Origin: Candidatus Falkowbacteria bacterium
GTDB lineage: Bacteria; Patescibacteriota; Patescibacteriia; JACRDY01
NCBI GenBank assembly: GCA_016218485.1
Contig: JACRDY010000068.1
Location: 1 to 21,024 of the forward strand
Length of the DNA: 21,024 nucleotides
Direction: 5' to 3'
In this document: positions 3,338 to 12,087 of the stretch, in pieces
Numbering within the stretch: position 1 is the first letter of the stretch
Layout: each line of letters begins with the position of its first letter
Translations under genes and position numbers: made by a program
Notes under the pieces: generated by a model
Databases searched by the model: none
What the model saw: only the letters and a program-made list of their open reading frames with translations
Told to the model about the DNA's origin: nothing

Positions 3338-4612
<1,275 letters not shown>

Positions 4613-4647
4613 GGGTCAGGAGGGGAAGTTTTTCGCGAAAATTACAG

Positions 4648-4684
4648 GCCGGGTTCGCAAGGACCCGGCTTGATCTATTTTTTA
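4648..4684 (+). terminator. Candidate intrinsic terminator after purD
   Basis: Hairpin gccgggttcgcaaggacccggc followed by tctatttttt. A second imperfect hairpin plus T-run follows at ~4708-4745. Confidence 0.4.
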
Positions 4685-4854
4685 CTGTTTGGTGGCATCC
4701 CTGCTCGACTCACCCCGCACAATGCGGAGTGGGTGGGTTTTTATTGAATTACTTAAATTCTAAATTCAAAATCCTAAATTCCAAATACTTAAATCATAAA
4801 TTCTAAACACGCAATACCGAGTTTAAGATTTTGGATTTAGGTAGTATGATTCAT

Positions 4855-4911
4855 CCAGCACCTTCCAGAATATCCCGCAGCAAGCTGACGGGATATTCTG
4901 GAAGGTGCTGG
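4855..4911. repeat. Perfect long hairpin / palindromic element, copy 1 of the CCAGCACCTT family
   Basis: ccagcaccttccagaatatcccg-cagcaagctgac-gggatattctggaaggtgctgg, a 23-bp perfect stem. It is itself flanked by an inverted pair of AT-rich word-repeat arms (4745-4800 / 4912-4965). Confidence 0.7.
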
Positions 4912-4990
4912 ATTTATTTAGGATTTTGAATTTTAGGTTTATAATTTAATTCTTAGTTATGGGTAAGTCTCATTCTATAAATTTTCAGAG

Positions 4991-5083
4991 AGCGGGTAGG
5001 GGGAATCGCCAGCTCATCGGCAAAGTCGTGAGCTGATCCGCTAAAGCCCGAAGGGCTATGAGCGGAAACCCCCCTCCAGTTTG
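4991..5083 (-). pseudogene. Partial second copy of the tRNA-Gly 3' portion (anticodon-loop 3' side through the acceptor 3' strand) with a 59-nt structured insertion in the T-loop
   Basis: Minus-strand reading: AAACTGG-AGGGG-GGGGG-TTT[CCGCTCATAGCCCTTCGGGCTTTAGCGGATCAGCTCACGACTTTGCCGATGAGCTGGCG]ATT-CCCCC-TACCCGCT. It matches tRNA-Gly segments on both sides of the insert. The insert has two hairpins, one with a UUCG tetraloop. Confidence 0.5.
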
Positions 5084-5101
5084 CCTGCCCGCCAGAGCCT
5101 C

Positions 5102-5173
5102 AGCGGGTAGGGGGAATTGAACCCCCCTCTCCAGTTTGGAAAACTGGAATAATAACCGCTATACGATACCCGC
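5102..5173 (-). tRNA. tRNA-Gly (anticodon TCC)
   Basis: Reverse complement: GCGGGTA-TC-GTAT-AGCGGTTA-TTAT-T-CCAGT-TTTCCAA-ACTGG-AGAGG-GGGGG-TTCAATT-CCCCC-TACCCGC-T. Cloverleaf with U73 discriminator, closely similar to bacterial tRNA-Gly(UCC). No encoded CCA. Confidence 0.85.
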
Positions 5174-5191
5174 TCAGGCTGAGGCAGGCGG

Positions 5192-5213
5192 GGAAAACTG
5201 GAATAATAATCGC
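5192..5213 (-). pseudogene. Partial copy of the tRNA-Gly D-loop, D-stem 3' strand and anticodon stem/loop up to the anticodon, lying just 5' of the intact tRNA-Gly
   Basis: Minus-strand reading: GCGATTATTATT-CCAGT-TTTCC, against the intact gene GCGGTTATTATT-CCAGT-TTTCC. Together with the 4991-5083 fragment it forms an outer tRNA-Gly-like copy split in the anticodon loop by [spacer + intact tRNA-Gly + spacer]. Confidence 0.45.
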
Positions 5214-5228
5214 TTACCATTATATACA

Positions 5229-5304
5229 TGGTCGGGCCGGCGAGGCTCGAACTCGCGACCTCCTGGTCCCAAACCAGGCGCGCTACCAACTGCGCTACGG
5301 CCCG
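5229..5304 (-). tRNA. tRNA-Pro (anticodon TGG), CCA encoded
   Basis: Reverse complement: CGGGCCG-TA-GCGC-AGTTGGTA-GCGC-G-CCTGG-TTTGGGA-CCAGG-AGGTC-GCGAG-TTCGAGC-CTCGC-CGGCCCG-A-CCA. C1:G72 is typical of tRNA-Pro. Confidence 0.85.
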
Positions 5305-5325
5305 ACCATGTTTTTAATGATGAAA

Positions 5326-5448
5326 GCCGGGACGCGCTTCACCCGCCCAAATTTAGCTCTCATCATTAATGGTATCCGCGATTACCCACCATCGTGTAAT
5401 CAAAACGGACAACGTTTTTGTACCGAGCTAAATTTGGGCGGGTAAACC
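5326..5448 (-). repeat. Copy 1 of a ~125-nt terminally palindromic structured element (candidate ncRNA or MITE), immediately 5' of tRNA-Pro
   Basis: Terminal inverted repeats CACCCGCCCAAATTTAGCTC ... GAGCTAAATTTGGGCGGGTAAACC (~20 bp) enclose internal hairpins (CAAAACG-gacaa-CGTTTTG; GATTAC...GTAATC). Two further copies at 5756-5879 and 6149-6273 show the same organisation. Confidence 0.7.
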
Positions 5449-5465
5449 AACTGCGCTACGGCCCG
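5447..5465 (-). pseudogene. Partial copy of the tRNA-Pro 5' end (acceptor 5' strand through the D-loop), abutting element copy 1
   Basis: Minus-strand reading: CGGGCCGTAGCGCAGTTGG, identical to the first 19 nt of tRNA-Pro, followed directly by the element's TTTACCCGCC end. Confidence 0.5.
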
Positions 5466-5543
5466 TTAATAACAATTAACAGTTAACAATTAACCAGTAA
5501 CAAACAACCAAATATGCTAGTCAATTGTTAAGCGTTAATTTGT

Positions 5544-5640
5544 TAACTGTTAATTGGTGCCGAGGGGCAGAATTGCCCGCTCGTCTTCGCGAGCGGATCC
5601 GCTCAGGCCGAATGGCCATGAGCGGAAACTGCCGACGCTC
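5544..5640 (-). pseudogene. Partial second copy of the tRNA-Phe 3' portion with a ~50-nt structured insertion in the T-loop, and an encoded CCA
   Basis: Minus-strand reading: ...GGCGTC-GGCAG-TT[TCCGCTCATGGCCATTCGGCCTGAGCGGATCCGCTCGCGAAGACGAGCGG]GCAATT-CTGCC-CCTCGGC-A-CCA. The insert shares CCGCTCAT-GCC-TTCGG-C-T-AGCGGATC with the Gly-copy insert. Confidence 0.5.
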
Positions 5641-5662
5641 CCGCCAACTATTCCAGGCAATC

Positions 5663-5734
5663 TGCCGGGGGGCAGAATTGAACTGCCGACGCCATGCTCT
5701 TCAGGCATGCGCTCTACCACTGAGCTACCCCGGC
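5663..5734 (-). tRNA. tRNA-Phe (anticodon GAA)
   Basis: Reverse complement: GCCGGGG-TA-GCTC-AGTGGTA-GAGC-G-CATGC-CTGAAGA-GCATG-GCGTC-GGCAG-TTCAATT-CTGCC-CCCCGGC-A. No encoded CCA. It is flanked by the inverted leader/trailer GCAATCT...AGATTGC. Confidence 0.85.
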
Positions 5735-5755
5735 AGATTGCAAATTATAGTTGTA

Positions 5756-5879
5756 GGCGGGACGCTCTTCACCCGCCCAAATTTAGCTCTAGTAATTAAT
5801 GGTATCTGTGACTCTCTCACGCGCGTGTAATCCAAGCAGATAACGCTTTTGTGCCGAGCTAAATTTAGGCGGGTAAACC
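5756..5879 (-). repeat. Copy 2 of the ~125-nt element, immediately 5' of tRNA-Phe
   Basis: Same terminal inverted repeats (CACCCGCCCAAATTTAGCTC...GAGCTAAATTTAGGCGGGTAAACC). The interior is divergent, but the internal hairpin is kept by different base pairs (AAGC/GCTT versus AAAACG/CGTTTT in copy 1). Confidence 0.7.
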
Positions 5880-5918
5880 AGCCCCGAAGGGGCCCCTTTG
5901 GGGCTGAGCTACCTCGGC
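5880..5918 (-). pseudogene. GC-rich double hairpin plus a 15-nt fragment matching the 5' end of a tRNA-Phe variant
   Basis: Minus-strand reading: GCCGAGGTAGCTCAG-CCCCAAAGGGGCCCCTTCGGGGCTGG. GCCGAGG is exactly complementary to the CCTCGGC acceptor 3' strand of the partial Phe 3' copy at 5544-5640, and not to that of the intact tRNA-Phe (GCCGGGG/CCCCGGC). Confidence 0.45.
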
Positions 5919-5966
5919 TTACCCTGATATCTGAACGGAATATAGTATTAGCAAATAGACTGCATA

Positions 5967-6048
5967 GGGCGTACTTGGATTCCCCGCCTGCCAGCGCCTG
6001 CGGCGCAGCCGTTGGCGGGCAGGGAACCAAGGACCTCGTCATTATCAG
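5967..6048 (-). pseudogene. Partial second copy of the tRNA-Ile 3' portion with a 42-nt GC-rich hairpin insertion in the T-loop
   Basis: Minus-strand reading: CTGATAA-TGACG-AGGTC-CTTGG-TTC[CCTGCCCGCCAACGGCTGCGCCGCAGGCGCTGGCAGGCGGGG]AATCC-AAG-TACGCCC. The insert sits at the same T-loop position (after TTC) as in the Gly and Phe copies. Confidence 0.5.
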
Positions 6049-6066
6049 CTCCGCCCCGCACCAAAA

Positions 6067-6140
6067 TGCGCGTACTTGGATTTGAACCAAGGACCTCGTC
6101 ATTATCAGTGACGCGCTCTAACCAACTGAGCTATACGCGC
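6067..6140 (-). tRNA. tRNA-Ile (anticodon GAT)
   Basis: Reverse complement: GCGCGTA-TA-GCTC-AGTTGGTTA-GAGC-G-CGTCA-CTGATAA-TGACG-AGGTC-CTTGG-TTCAAAT-CCAAG-TACGCGC-A. No encoded CCA. Confidence 0.85.
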
Positions 6141-6148
6141 ATATTGCT

Positions 6149-6273
6149 GCGGGGTGAACGCTCTTCACCCGCCCAAATTTAGCCTTAGTAATTAAGGGTA
6201 ACCGCGATTACTCACCATCGTGTAATCTAAGCGGACAACCTTTTTGTACCGAGCTAAATTTAGGCGGGTAAAC
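6149..6273 (-). repeat. Copy 3 of the ~125-nt element, immediately 5' of tRNA-Ile
   Basis: The terminal inverted repeats and interior are highly similar to copy 1. It is followed at 6274-6313 by the same GC double hairpin and a 5' tRNA fragment GGACGTATAGCTCAG, which pairs with the TACGCCC strand of the partial Ile 3' copy. Confidence 0.7.
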
Positions 6274-6420
6274 CAGCCCCGAAGGGGCCCCTTTGGGGCT
6301 GAGCTATACGTCCGTCATCTAGAGTTTACTGCTAGGGTAGATAAAAATAACTACTCGGCAGTCTAATACAAAACGGTAAAAAAAGCAAGGTACGAGCAGG
6401 CTGATTTAGTCTTAATTTGA

Positions 6421-6449
6421 TTGATTAATTTAGATATTTCGGCTAGTAT
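6421..6449 (+). promoter_or_regulatory. Sigma70-like promoter for mnmA
   Basis: TTGATT, 17-nt spacer, TAGTAT, ending ~15 nt upstream of the ATG at 6464. Confidence 0.45.
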
Positions 6450-6463
6450 GCTAGAGCAGTTTT

Positions 6464-7564
6464 ATGACTCAAAAGAATAAGAAACCCACAGTCATCGTGG
6501 CCATGTCCGGCGGCGTGGATTCGTCTGTCGCGGCCGCTTTACTACAGCGGCAGGGCTATGACGTGCGCGGCGTGCATATCAAGATGTGGTCGGATCCGGA
6601 TATCCCCTGTTTGTTTACTTTTGACCGGATTGACGCCATGAAAGTAGCGATCCAGCTCGGCATTCCTTTCACCACTTGGGATCTGACGCGCGAATACCGC
6701 AGCGCGGTCGTGGACTACATGATCCGCGAGTTTAAGGCCGGTCGGACGCCCAACCCGGACGTGATGTGTAATAGCGAGATCAAGTTCGGGGTGTTTTTGG
6801 ATAAAGTTTTAAAAACGGGCGCGGAGTATTTGGCGACGGGGCATTATGTGAAAAAAGCGCAAAGCGCAAAGCGCAAAGCACAGAGCCAGTCCACGATACA
6901 AAAATTGTATATCGCGGCGGATGGGAATAAGGATCAGAGCTATTTTCTCTGGCGGCTGAATCAGCAGCAGCTGCGGCATAGCCTGTTTCCCCTGGGTGGT
7001 CTGACTAAGCCGCAGGTGCGAGTCCTCGCCAAACAGTTTAAGCTGCCTACCGCTGACAAGCCGGACTCGCAGGGTATCTGCTTCATCGGCGAGATTAACC
7101 TCAAGGATTTCCTGGAACACTACATCCCCCGCCGTCCGGGCACAATCGTGACCACGGACGGCCGCGTACTCGGCCATCATGAGGGTCTCCCCTTCTATAC
7201 CATTGGTCAGCGTGAGGGGCTGGGTCTGGGCGGTGGCATCCCCTACTATGTCGTTGCCAAAAATTTTAAAACCAATCAGCTGATTGTTGGCAGCCGGGGC
7301 GCGGCTGAACTGTTTCTGCCGAGTTTGCGGTTCACCGCCGCCAATTGGCTACTTGGCAGCGAGCCGAAACTGCCTCTGATCTGCCTGGCGCGTATCCGCT
7401 ACCGTCAGCCGCTGGAGCGTTGTCGGGTCAAACGCATCAGCGGTCGCGGCATTCGGGCGATCTATCAAGCGAAATTTACCGAGCCGCAGCGGGCCATTAC
7501 TCCCGGTCAGTCCATTGTGTTGTACAGGAGCGAGGAGATGATCGGGGGCGGGATTATTATTTAG
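6464..7564 (+). CDS. mnmA: tRNA-specific 2-thiouridylase (tRNA (5-methylaminomethyl-2-thiouridylate)-methyltransferase)
   Basis: A 366-aa ORF. PP-loop VAMSGGVDSSV near the N-terminus. Collinear with MnmA throughout (DQSYFL, GICFIGE, ITPGQS..GGGII C-terminus). It contains an ~8-codon in-frame insertion encoded by GCGCAAAGCGCAAAGCGCAAAGCACAGAGC at ~6856-6890. Confidence 0.85.
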   Translation: MTQKNKKPTVIVAMSGGVDSSVAAALLQRQGYDVRGVHIKMWSDPDIPCLFTFDRIDAMKVAIQLGIPFTTWDLTREYRSAVVDYMIREFKAGRTPNPDVMCNSEIKFGVFLDKVLKTGAEYLATGHYVKKAQSAKRKAQSQSTIQKLYIAADGNKDQSYFLWRLNQQQLRHSLFPLGGLTKPQVRVLAKQFKLPTADKPDSQGICFIGEINLKDFLEHYIPRRPGTIVTTDGRVLGHHEGLPFYTIGQREGLGLGGGIPYYVVAKNFKTNQLIVGSRGAAELFLPSLRFTAANWLLGSEPKLPLICLARIRYRQPLERCRVKRISGRGIRAIYQAKFTEPQRAITPGQSIVLYRSEEMIGGGIII

Positions 7565-7700
7565 TCCTTAGTCCATAGTCCCTAGTCCTTAGTCCATAGT
7601 CCTTATTCCATAGTCCTTAGCGTATAGTTTTAGCGTGAAAGCCTCCACTAAGTACTAGGGACTAAGGACTATGGACTATGTATAGGACTATGTACTATTT
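7564..7700. repeat. Palindromic spacer built from TAGTCC/TAGGAC-type 6-9-nt words
   Basis: gtccttagtccatagtccctagtccttagtccatagtcc...actagggactaaggactatggactatgtataggactatg. The two arms are reverse complements of each other. Confidence 0.55.
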
Positions 7701-8745: not shown

Positions 8746-9246
8746 ATGCAGCTATTTGTTAAAAAATTCACCAAAAACGGCCTGAAAATAGGTTTTTTTG
8801 TGGTGGCGCTGTGTTTGATGTTGGCGCTGGCATTGCCGGTGCTGGCCGTTACTGGACAGGGTGGTGACACGGGGCAGGGGGATACGAGTGGGCAGGGTAA
8901 TGACACCGGATCGGGTGGTGATACGGGACAAAATGAAGGGGGTAAGGCCAGTATTATATCCCTGGAAGATCCATTGAATGTAAAGACGGATGCAACAGGG
9001 CCATTGTCCAACATAGCTATTGTGCAGGAAATAATTCTCCGTTTGGCTAAATTCCTGATCGCGCCCATCGGCGCTATTGCTTTCCTCTGTTTGGTGATTG
9101 GCGGGTTTTATATGATTTTTTCCGGGGGTAATGAGGAGCGGGTTAAACAGGGCAAAGATATTATTGTCTGGACCGTGGTGGGGATTATCGTGATTTTTAG
9201 CGCCTACGCGGTGATTAATTTTGTGCTGACGGCGGTGAGAGGATAG
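8746..9246 (+). CDS. Secreted small membrane protein with TrbC/VirB2-like conjugative-pilin topology (signal peptide, Gly/Asp/Thr-rich low-complexity segment, two C-terminal TM helices)
   Basis: A 166-aa ORF. Signal peptide FFVVALCLMLALALPVLAVTG, then repeats QGGDTGQGDTSGQGNDTGSGGDTGQNEGG, then two hydrophobic helices separated by GGNEERVKQGKD. TATAAT at 8733-8742. The family assignment rests on topology only. Confidence 0.35.
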   Translation: MQLFVKKFTKNGLKIGFFVVALCLMLALALPVLAVTGQGGDTGQGDTSGQGNDTGSGGDTGQNEGGKASIISLEDPLNVKTDATGPLSNIAIVQEIILRLAKFLIAPIGAIAFLCLVIGGFYMIFSGGNEERVKQGKDIIVWTVVGIIVIFSAYAVINFVLTAVRG

Positions 9247-11907: not shown

Positions 11908-11982
11908 TTGGAGGCCTGGAGGGGAATTGCACCCCTGCATAGAGGTTTTGCAGACCTCTGCCTTACTGCTTGGCTACCAGGC
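11908..11982 (-). tRNA. Candidate tRNA-Cys (anticodon GCA), CCA encoded, with a non-canonical T-loop
   Basis: Reverse complement: GGCCTGG-TA-GCCA-AGCAGTA-AGGC-A-GAGGT-CTGCAAA-ACCTC-TATGC-AGGGG-TGCAATT-CCCCT-CCAGGCC-T-CCA. Perfect 7-bp acceptor, and U73 as expected for Cys. The T-loop UGCAAUU lacks the usual T54-Psi55-C56 (it has G at 55), and the D-stem has 3 bp plus an A-A. Confidence 0.55.
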
Positions 11983-12087
11983 CGTAAATTTACGTGGTCT
12001 TACTATAGCAGGATAAACCTTTAAAATCAAGAGTTTTTGCTGATTAAGAGTTTAGAAATATTTTAGATAGGCTGTGGTAGACTATTT

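Follow-up and report, generated by a model that had tools for sequence, protein, structure and literature searches.

The principle that a nuclease-encoding element replaces what it breaks is known. SegB of phage T4 is a free-standing GIY-YIG homing endonuclease encoded in a tRNA gene cluster; its site includes a conserved T-psi-C stem-loop motif, and cleavage of a naive genome leads to the inheritance of the nuclease together with the neighbouring tRNA genes (PMC2330249). The mORFs of fungal mitochondria, present in atp6 of Allomyces macrogynus and in atp6, atp9, cox2 and nad3 of Glomus, are LAGLIDADG or GIY-YIG open reading frames (ORFs) that enter an essential gene and bring a foreign copy of the part which they displace, while the native part remains downstream as an unexpressed relic and the sequence divergence points to a horizontal origin (PMC3630166). 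The present analysis concerns a locus of nested tRNA genes in a metagenome-assembled genome (MAG) of the Patescibacteria, also called the Candidate Phyla Radiation (CPR), on contig JACRDY010000068.1, the whole 21,024-bp length of which was analysed and is referred to here as the window. The locus is best explained, with a probability of about 0.7, by the repeated invasion of tRNA genes by palindrome-ended cassettes of the homing type, the autonomous members of which encode a GIY-YIG nuclease.

Short hairpin repeats with variable middles between conserved ends are familiar as the Rickettsia palindromic elements, the small dispersed repeats of cyanobacteria and the GC clusters and double-hairpin elements of mitochondria. 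Small palindromic repeats and MITEs, the miniature transposable elements with inverted repeats, nest in each other, occur in RNA genes and have non-autonomous copies, and the enzymes that mobilise such repeats are mostly unknown or transposases; to our knowledge, none of these repeats carries a whole tRNA gene or sits inside the gene that it replaces. Insertions that are not introns have also been described in the rRNA genes of the CPR, where GIY-YIG ORFs occur only in insertions belonging neither to group I nor to group II, many insertions are short and ORF-less, and the sites lie at the tops or bases of stem-loops; that study judged the GIY-YIG ORFs to stand outside a homing context and mentions neither tRNA genes (0 occurrences) nor inverted repeats or palindromes (PMC11270868). 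A survey of tRNA introns in the Patescibacteria covers group I introns only (PMC13011429).

Intact tRNA genes were detected with ARAGORN and the Rfam tRNA model, and the remaining pieces were placed by repeat finding and exact string positions. The locus lies on the minus strand at 4990-6313, between purD (3338-4612) and mnmA (6464-7564), and holds four intact tRNA genes, for Ile, Phe, Pro and Gly (59-76 bits with the Rfam model), each enclosed by an older, co-oriented copy of the same tRNA that has been cut apart by inserts, all of which form hairpins on folding (Table 1). The Ile module shows the plan most fully. Read in the direction of the tRNA, GGACGTATAGCTCAG and a double mini-hairpin of 22 nt are followed by CTGGTT, an element of 105 nt and AAGAGCG; next comes the intact tRNA, between a leader and a trailer of 18 nt each, and then CTGATAATGACGAGGTCCTTGGTTC, a hairpin of 42 nt and AATCCAAGTACGCCC. 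With CTGGTT and AAGAGCG supplying the two halves that the outer D-arm would otherwise lack, the outer Ile gene is essentially complete. Its inserts number four: the D-loop has two, the T-loop has one, and one lies at the 5' edge of the anticodon arm. By eye, the left arm of the inner Ile cassette is a diverged version of the core-type terminus found at TTCA-CCCGCCYAAATTT junctions elsewhere (see below), and the CGGAG that follows the trailer may be what decay has left of the 5' strand in the outer anticodon stem. In the Phe module, the inner cassette stands exactly in place of positions 27-43 of the outer gene, that is, its 17-nt anticodon arm. The outer Pro 5' part has 20 nt identical to the inner Pro gene, and the outer Gly copy lacks the acceptor 5' strand and the 5' D-stem. 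Each inner tRNA has a leader complementary to its trailer, which lengthens the acceptor stem; the leader between the D-loop junction and the intact tRNA measures 18-28 nt, and the outer copies lie 15-30 nt from the intact gene.

Table 1. Positions of the component parts of the nested tRNA locus, listed in the direction of the tRNAs
Feature	Positions	Strand	Evidence
Outer (relic) tRNA-Ile, 5' acceptor strand and 5' D-stem, GGACGTATAGCTCAG	6299-6313	-	exact positions
22-nt double mini-hairpin CCCCAAAGGGGCCCCTTCGGGG, outer Ile D-loop after G15	6277-6298	-	repeat count
Outer Ile D-arm pieces bracketing the element, CTGGTT and AAGAGCG	6271-6276 and 6159-6165	-	
105-nt palindrome-ended element, TA-CCCGCCTAAATTT...AAATTTGGGCGGG-TG, outer Ile D-loop	6166-6270	-	DNA fold z -5.9
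Inner Ile cassette, left arm and leader, TTCA-CCCCGCAGCAATAT	6141-6158	-	inverted repeat with trailer
Intact tRNA-Ile(GAT), presumed working gene	6066-6141	-	ARAGORN; Rfam 76.4 bits
Inner Ile cassette, trailer and right arm, TTTTGGTGCGGGG-CGGAG	6049-6066	-	inverted repeat with leader
Outer tRNA-Ile 3' part, anticodon loop to acceptor end	5967-6048	-	repeats, positions
42-nt GC-rich hairpin, outer Ile T-loop, termini CCTGCCCGCC / GGCAGGCGGGG	5982-6023	-	
Outer tRNA-Phe, 5' acceptor strand and 5' D-stem, GCCGAGGTAGCTCAG	5904-5918	-	exact positions
22-nt double mini-hairpin, second copy, same D-loop position, outer Phe	5882-5903	-	
Outer Phe D-arm pieces bracketing the element, CTGGTT and AAGAGCG	5876-5881 and 5763-5769	-	
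106-nt palindrome-ended element, outer Phe D-loop	5770-5875	-	fold z -5.0
Inner Phe cassette	5639-5762	-	ARAGORN, Rfam, inverted repeat
Inner Phe arms, TCCCGCC with leader; trailer with GGCGGGA	5735-5762; 5639-5662	-	
Intact tRNA-Phe(GAA)	5662-5735	-	ARAGORN, Rfam
Outer tRNA-Phe 3' part with variable region, T-arm, 3' strand of the acceptor stem and CCA	5555-5638	-	
51-nt double hairpin, outer Phe T-loop	5576-5626	-	fold z -5.5
Outer tRNA-Pro 5' part, CGGGCCGTAGCGCAGTTGGTT, 3' half absent	5445-5465	-	positions
105-nt palindrome-ended element, outer Pro D-loop, followed by AAGCGCG (5333-5339)	5340-5444	-	fold z -7.9
Inner Pro leader with arm TCCCGGC	5305-5332	-	complementary to trailer
Intact tRNA-Pro(TGG), CCA encoded	5229-5304	-	ARAGORN, Rfam
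Outer tRNA-Gly 5' piece, 3' D-stem to anticodon loop, GCGATTATTATTCCAGTTTTCC	5192-5213	-	repeats
Inner Gly cassette in outer anticodon loop, arms CCGCCTGCCTCAGCCTGA / GAGGCTCTGGCGGGCAGG	5084-5191	-	
Intact tRNA-Gly(TCC)	5101-5174	-	ARAGORN, Rfam
Outer tRNA-Gly 3' part	4990-5083	-	repeats, positions
59-nt double hairpin, outer Gly T-loop	5008-5066	-	fold z -4.2

An earlier, sequence-only reading of this DNA had listed the four intact minus-strand tRNAs and the repeated pieces around them, and both lists hold, every piece having been located on the minus strand; so do its chimeric module with a Pro 5' and a Gly 3' end and its range of 42-59 nt for the T-loop inserts (42 for Ile, 51 for Phe and 59 for Gly). 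Its placing of these inserts after TTC is correct for Ile, but in Phe and Gly they follow TT. The claim that the outer acceptor strands are complementary to each other is exact for Phe, where GCCGAGG pairs with CCTCGGC at 7/7 positions (the inner strands being GCCGGGG and CCCCGGC), and slightly generous for Ile, where 6/7 positions pair and A3.C70 is mismatched. Other parts of the description had to be revised: the element given as 125 nt is 105-106 nt long; the outer Ile and Phe copies, seen as a 15-nt 5' stub and a 3' portion, are nearly whole genes with four inserts, the D-arm pieces having been overlooked; the Phe 3' copy begins at the variable region and not at the anticodon loop, the anticodon arm being replaced; and the palindromic element and the intact tRNA, taken there for a single insert, are separate inserts in the window, where the D-loop holds two inserts and the anticodon arm and the T-loop hold one each.

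The inner and outer copies differ mostly in their acceptor stems, where the changes are compensated (pair 5-68 in Phe and pair 2-71 in Ile), and their T-arms and variable regions are identical. Once the inserts are spliced out, ARAGORN run at a lowered threshold recognises the outer Ile copy as tRNA-Ile(GAT), with a weak anticodon stem that contains two mismatches, and recognises the outer Phe copy only with a grafted anticodon arm. In the minimum free energy folds predicted for the whole Phe and Ile modules, one cloverleaf encloses another and the outer acceptor stem is closed (z -9.3 for Phe and -9.2 for Ile, as a thermodynamic prediction only). The recurrence of the inserts exceeds chance: CCCCAAAGGGGCCCCTTCGGGG is present twice in the window against 0 copies expected, and the three copies of the palindrome-ended element give 6 terminus matches against 0.01 expected. 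The 22-nt sequence folds as two hairpins and is not significant alone (z -0.28), and among the three element copies 1 compensated pair of 35 was found, three copies being too thin to judge covariation. No Rfam family matches the palindrome-ended elements, and no Rfam intron match was found within 4600-6500. The 69-nt interior of the D-loop element was also considered as a decayed nuclease gene or a known RNA and was rejected on both counts, the similarity being at chance level and Rfam giving no match.

To place these inserts in a wider context, a species-representative collection with one genome per species was scanned with the pattern CCCGCCYAAATTT-N60-90-AAATTTRGGCGGG, of which the window holds three exact terminus pairs. 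The pattern matches 68 stretches, all but a few labelled as Patescibacteria, and these belong to many classes, with the Saccharibacteria, Kaiserbacteria, Uhrbacteria, Buchananbacteria, Azambacteria, Doudnabacteria, Sungbacteria and Paceibacteria represented; viral contigs gave no match, whether the gap was set to 60-90 or to 0-30 nt. The arms of the four inner cassettes of the window are, by eye, diverged versions only (CCCCGCA, TCCCGCC, TCCCGGC and CCGCCTGCC). Throughout the family the termini are constant and the interior varies by locus. The interior is an intact tRNA in 16 loci, to which a relaxed search adds one, and in 17/17 of these cases the flanks are parts of a co-oriented tRNA of the same amino-acid identity (Val 8, Met 3, Arg 2, Ala 2, and Glu, Leu and Pro). 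A replacement copy together with a native relic, as in intronless homing of the mORF type, is found for all four tRNAs of the window and in 17/17 cases elsewhere. Where the cargo is not a tRNA, it resembles its own flanks no more than it does those of other loci, and the notion that the cargo copies its target is therefore ruled out as a general rule.

Several of these loci (numbered with the prefix L) reproduce particular features of the window. At anticodon-loop junctions the arrangement is TTCA-CCCGCC...GGGCGGG-CAAG with a CA of the loop missing, and the D-loop cases are its reverse complement, CTTG...TGAA, at TG. The outer copies form a series from a complete gene with a perfectly paired acceptor stem (L064) to truncated ones (L045, L019, L036), and L026 has three layers, its outer tRNA being itself bounded by termini. 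Extra GC-rich hairpins occur in outer D, anticodon or T loops of L006, L018, L025, L050, L069 and L073, as they do in the window, and in L069 and L073 double hairpins follow GGTTC in the T-loop, again as in the window. A tRNA-Arg flanked by CCTGCCCGCC...GGCAGGCGGG within an outer tRNA-Arg (L043) has the termini of the window's Gly cassette and Ile T-loop insert, which belong to one terminus family. L045 and L064 have in common a 143-nt cassette with 94% identity and are otherwise alike only in two short, weaker matches nearby, and the inner and outer tRNA-Val of L064 differ in every stem; as a comparison of sequences, this suggests horizontal movement of the cassette. Among the tRNAs in the CPR loci gathered here, a biased sample of loci, 37/101 have partial copies of themselves within 260 nt. 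Family elements also lie inside 16S and 23S rRNA genes (L065, L059, L097, L130); some are flanked by clean direct duplications of 4-5 bp, and others stand between genes, centred in longer palindromes. The longer palindrome has arms of ~45 nt (ttatgagcgaagcgaattaca..ttcttaa), fills the spacer between co-directional genes (L005, L011, L012, L014, L021, L035, L037, L047 and about 15 more) and abuts the ATG of the downstream gene with its outer end; at the centre of one (L023, 5697-5731) is a nearly empty member with its termini 9 nt apart.

Two longer elements with the same termini enclose ORFs of 88 and 74 amino acids (aa) that are GIY-YIG domains (Pfam E 6e-17 and 1.5e-13). The GIY-YIG proteins of the family measure 74-100 aa, homologues are annotated in Uhrbacteria, Sungbacteria and other Patescibacteria, and UPF0213 proteins are matched by the nuclease profile, as is the structure-specific endonuclease SLX1. 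Metagenomic loci were searched with patterns derived from an alignment of 7 nuclease sequences, a profile of 24 sequences being too diverse. Both termini sit tightly on the ORF in 43/80 of the GIY-YIG loci obtained, and at least one terminus is present in 65/80. The whole element measures ~290 bp and is found at start codons, in 23S rRNA and at the 5' ends of tRNA-Gly and tmRNA, with direct duplications of 3-4 bp (TATG, GATG, GTG or CTTG) at the insertion sites. At the tRNA-Gly and tmRNA sites, the right terminus GGCGGG together with a 3-nt duplication restores the displaced 5' acceptor strand. A classical MITE, as a deletion derivative of a transposase-encoding insertion sequence, would have an interior related to the ends of the autonomous element and a target-site duplication of fixed length. 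The 69-70-nt interiors of the window elements resemble the ~290-bp elements at chance level only (scores 9.5-14), and no clear duplication flanks the D-loop copies in the window.

The sites of the ~290-bp elements are recurrent in their details. At start codons (L072, L073, L075, L077, L078, L082-L084, L088, L090, L095, L104) the ends fall near 1480 and 1770 in most loci and TATG, GATG or GTG is duplicated on both sides, so that the downstream gene retains its start codon. At tRNA-Gly and tmRNA sites (L099 1313-1667; L100 1482-1838; L135 1453-1808; L086 1471-2117; L095 504-1142; L104 922-1549; L096 1244-1790) the ARAGORN call begins inside the terminus and a short 5' stub remains upstream. The tRNA-Gly(GCC) of L096 is bracketed by two 72-nt non-autonomous element copies and a GIY-YIG element, with 5' and 3' acceptor stubs outside the bracketing elements.

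A further class links the nuclease to nested tRNA genes physically. Its order is the 5' part of a tRNA with GGTT as its end, the short palindrome [T/C]ACCCG...CGGGT[A/G], AAG(A/C)GCG, a few nucleotides of anticodon stem, the GIY-YIG ORF and the intact tRNA. A regular expression that also finds the three junctions of the window recovers at least 13 distinct loci (L102, L107, L108, L111, L122, L128, L129, L132, L136, L138, L141, L149, L150), in which the intact tRNA (Ile, Val or Met) starts at the end of the ORF and contains the stop codon. Cleavage by RNase P at this tRNA would accordingly leave an mRNA with no stop codon. All three junctions of the window fit GGTT, palindrome and AAG(A/C)GCG, with an intact tRNA after each, and the window modules have the architecture of this class minus the ORF. 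In L111, 5' halves cut at CTGATAG are stacked upstream of an intact tRNA-Ile and 3' halves are stacked downstream of it. The ORF stops at a TAG in the tRNA (U8-A9-G10 or the D-loop) in L111 (1488-1750), L138 (1495-1790), L141 (1500-1780) and L149 (655-880); the start ATG of L149 is formed by the outer anticodon loop and stem (GATAATG), and L107 (1345-1500) and L108 (711-870) have three tandem copies of the D-loop palindrome, separated by TTGGTT.

These observations can be joined in a single course of events. A cassette would enter a resident tRNA gene at one of its loops or stems (the D-loop, anticodon arm or T-arm) and split it, and the split would be survivable only because the cassette brings a complete, co-oriented tRNA of the same identity, which would be transcribed from the resident promoter and take over; co-orientation would be needed for this expression. 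Only insertions that bring a working replacement would survive in single-copy tRNA genes. The resident gene would stay as an outer, probably non-functional relic, in the loops of which further hairpin elements may settle, and later cassettes landing in the previous inner gene would produce layers in the manner of Russian dolls, as well as chimeras, of which the Pro/Gly module is an example. The working tRNAs would be those of the inner Ile, Phe, Pro and Gly genes, with leader, trailer and terminal repeats forming a long helix that continues the acceptor stem and is probably trimmed in maturation. The four cassettes of the window may have lost a nuclease gene, never have had one, or have been mobilised in trans. 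The cassette replacing resident tRNA genes was among the possibilities raised by the sequence-only reading, and it now has comparative support in the 17 nested cases and the GIY-YIG-linked relatives. We infer that the nuclease drives the spread, either by homing through break repair or by transposition with 3-4-bp duplications.

A number of observations weigh against this explanation. No GIY-YIG gene or remnant was found in the 21-kb window with tblastn (all E > 0.01), so that the window copies would be non-autonomous and their mobilisation in this organism hypothetical. The window's own element subfamily, AAATTTAG...CTAAATTT, has no match in the metagenome collection or in the 68 genome stretches. 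No pair of empty and filled sites was found; the anticodon-loop junctions, in which a CA is replaced by TTCA-...-CAAG, do not resemble the simple 3-4-bp duplications seen with the ~290-bp elements. The MnmA protein of the window is on record under Candidatus Falkowbacteria bacterium, and its next best homologue has only 64% identity; the two relatives compared (contigs L070 and L071) have mnmA with no adjoining tRNAs, are not syntenic with the window and offer no orthologous locus. Since a cassette that has split the resident gene would be locked in, nested cases would be enriched among survivors, and the same-identity nesting may largely reflect survivorship and not be direct evidence of targeting. 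The compensated acceptor-stem differences fit alleles of separate origin, and equally fit selection on the pairing of the outer RNA. Finally, random later insertion does not account for the constant position that the D-loop palindrome has in the outer copies of four different tRNAs.

In an alternative account at the RNA level, unusual processing having been raised by the sequence-only reading too, the outer pieces would be functional parts of one precursor, and the palindromes and the inner cassette would act as intervening sequences, like those that RNase III cuts from rRNA or like introns of the archaeal type. The tRNA-like frame of the outer pieces would direct processing, or these pieces would be joined again to give a second tRNA. 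The closed outer acceptor stems of the predicted module folds, the compensated changes that keep these stems paired, the hairpin form of every insert, which sits in a loop and would spare the outer fold, the constant D-loop position, and the presence of same-family elements in 16S and 23S genes, the RNAs of which must either lose or tolerate them, all speak for such a design. It is nevertheless unlikely, because the outer Phe copy has no anticodon arm, the outer Pro copy no 3' half and the outer Gly copy no 5' acceptor strand or 5' D-stem, so that three of the four outer copies cannot yield a tRNA by excision; the outer Ile copy, too, has its two anticodon-stem mismatches and an acceptor A.C pair, and the outer copies of other genomes are decayed or truncated. 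Simple excision at the conserved anticodon-loop junctions was rejected by eye, no single choice of boundaries restoring a 7-nt loop, and the elements have no Rfam family. The inserts share the hairpin shape of the intervening sequences that RNase III removes from rRNA, as judged by folding; a tRNA nicked in its anticodon arm would not function. They differ from tRNA introns in that their removal gives a recognisable tRNA only for Ile, and weakly, with no Rfam intron match, and at 22-124 nt they are too short for group I introns.

An origin by local duplication, in which palindrome-stimulated replication error or unequal recombination doubles a tRNA gene and one copy decays and gathers hairpins, would account for the close similarity of inner and outer copies in the window, namely the identical T-arms and variable regions and the 20 nt of Pro, and palindromes are known to provoke rearrangements. 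It is, however, quite improbable, since tandem duplication yields copies side by side and not nested ones, nesting with conserved junctions recurs in many unrelated genomes, a near-identical cassette is found in otherwise unalignable loci, a nuclease gene is physically linked, and the inner tRNA-Val of L064, differing from the outer one in every stem, is not a local copy. Genes for tRNAs are also classic integration sites, and integration leaves a displaced 3' fragment, as would be expected if the fragments were att remnants of tyrosine or serine integrases that crossed over in tRNA loops and whose islands were later deleted; remnant att sites had already been raised by the sequence-only reading. 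Such integration duplicates only the part 3' of the crossover and leaves the copies an island apart, whereas here 5' fragments are present as well, at 15-30 nt; several breakpoints per gene exclude a single crossover site, no integrase was found among the window ORFs scanned, and the gene associated elsewhere is a GIY-YIG nuclease and not a recombinase, all of which makes this origin very improbable. A comparable archaeal case of integration at a tRNA gene has been described (PMC3293823). Hardly any weight is given to an assembly artefact, in which strain variants or repeats would have been collapsed into a false nested path in a short-read MAG. The contig is metagenome-assembled, the element occurs three times within 1 kb, and a second assembly, the Logan assembly of run SRR12113407, breaks inside the repeated element; this assembly is, however, identical to the window over 6249-7640 and exactly carries one junction (5' fragment, hairpin, CTGGTT and element terminus), inner and outer copies differ by specific, partly compensated substitutions and are not identical repeats, and dozens of independent contigs from different projects and assemblers have the same plan, which makes an artefact unlikely. 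The Logan contig and the MAG probably derive from the same reads, and a spurious 125-aa ORF spanning Ile to Phe, sought as an independent assembly of the nested part, is not on record.

Within the preferred explanation of invasion by homing-type cassettes, a more specific version can be put forward tentatively, at somewhat less than even odds, as a selfish gene-replacement drive. A bare nuclease of ~90 aa, resembling SLX1 and UPF0213, would recognise structure or sequence that tRNA genes share with its own palindromes and break the resident gene, and repair would install the nuclease, palindrome and replacement tRNA; since the cassette then holds the only working copy, the host could not lose it. 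The ~290-bp forms would insert only where their own ends rebuild the displaced sequence, as at start codons and the 5' ends of tRNA-Gly and tmRNA, and successive waves would give rise to the Russian-doll layers and to horizontal spread across the classes of the Patescibacteria. If this is true, few known autonomous mobile elements would be as small as these palindrome-enclosed forms.

Compared with the described systems, the likeness to SegB lies in a GIY-YIG gene among tRNA genes. SegB, however, stands between tRNA genes with no nested relic or replacement, whereas the CPR cassettes lie inside a tRNA gene; it is larger and has a DNA-binding part, whereas the CPR proteins are bare catalytic domains of 74-100 aa closest to UPF0213 and SLX1; and it has no palindromic termini and its activity was shown experimentally, the CPR nucleases being described here from sequence. 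The mORFs resemble the cassettes in that a nuclease element replaces what it breaks and leaves the native part as a relic, but they concern a protein gene of which only the C-terminal part is replaced in frame, whereas a whole tRNA is replaced in the CPR and both 5' and 3' relics remain; the CPR elements are also far smaller (about 100-370 nt), with palindromic ends and layered stacking. The small palindromic repeats are not known to enclose a GIY-YIG nuclease of ~90 aa, as the repeats of the CPR family do. Integrative elements that target tRNA genes and rebuild the 3' end from a copy of their own likewise supply what their insertion destroys and leave a displaced fragment, but these are mediated by a recombinase, are kilobases long and duplicate only the 3' part, unlike the cassettes. 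The non-intron insertions in CPR rRNA genes probably belong to the same element family as the tRNA cassettes. Full-text literature searches, including searches with the terminus sequences, returned no description of nested tRNA cassettes or of these termini, in agreement with the earlier remark that the architecture was undescribed. The nesting of a whole tRNA in its predecessor, the palindromic ends, the minimal nuclease, the layers and the phylum-wide spread appear to be new.

The rest of the window offers further features. A tRNA-Cys gene at 11909-11983 is plain, with a terminator and no fragments around it, and a promoter and terminator scan of the nested locus gave no more sites than shuffled sequence. 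Just downstream of the locus is a perfect 25-bp inverted repeat (4853-4877 / 4889-4913) set in AT-rich repeats of 7-nt period (4747-4818, 4916-4933). Heptamer repeats and GC hairpins could suggest a cyanobacterial origin of the contig, which was rejected because its proteins match those of Falkowbacteria and Sungbacteria. AT-rich palindromes of TTAACAGTTAACAATTAAC lie at 5473-5556, between the Phe and Pro modules; the minus strand has a weak sigma-70-like match there (5553-5524). The 3' two-thirds of a 16S rRNA gene end at 1021, no 23S gene being present within the 21-kb window, and a match to group II intron domains D1-D4 (1370-1483), ~350 nt past the 16S 3' end, is overlapped by a LAGLIDADG ORF (1400-2005). 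Group II introns that bear LAGLIDADG ORFs and have no reverse transcriptase are reported from CPR 16S genes (PMC11270868), from which the present match differs in lying beyond the 16S 3' end, and group II introns were not found in complete Patescibacteria genomes (PMC13011429). An ORF at 8746-9246 has the type IV secretion system pilin domain PF18895 (E 1.8e-9), and several ORFs near it have no Pfam match.

If the proposed invasion by homing-type cassettes is true, essential tRNA genes in the smallest known bacterial genomes have been repeatedly overwritten by tiny selfish cassettes, which would account for tRNA fragments and odd hairpins that annotation pipelines for the Patescibacteria ignore or miscall, and would provide a route by which distant lineages could exchange tRNA genes horizontally. 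The puzzling non-intron insertions in CPR rRNA genes would be tied to the same family of elements. A minimal nuclease of 74-100 aa with palindromic sites may act on DNA structure and would be of interest to the study of both mobile DNA and enzymes, and the nested copies would offer natural, datable layers for studies of the decay of tRNA pseudogenes.

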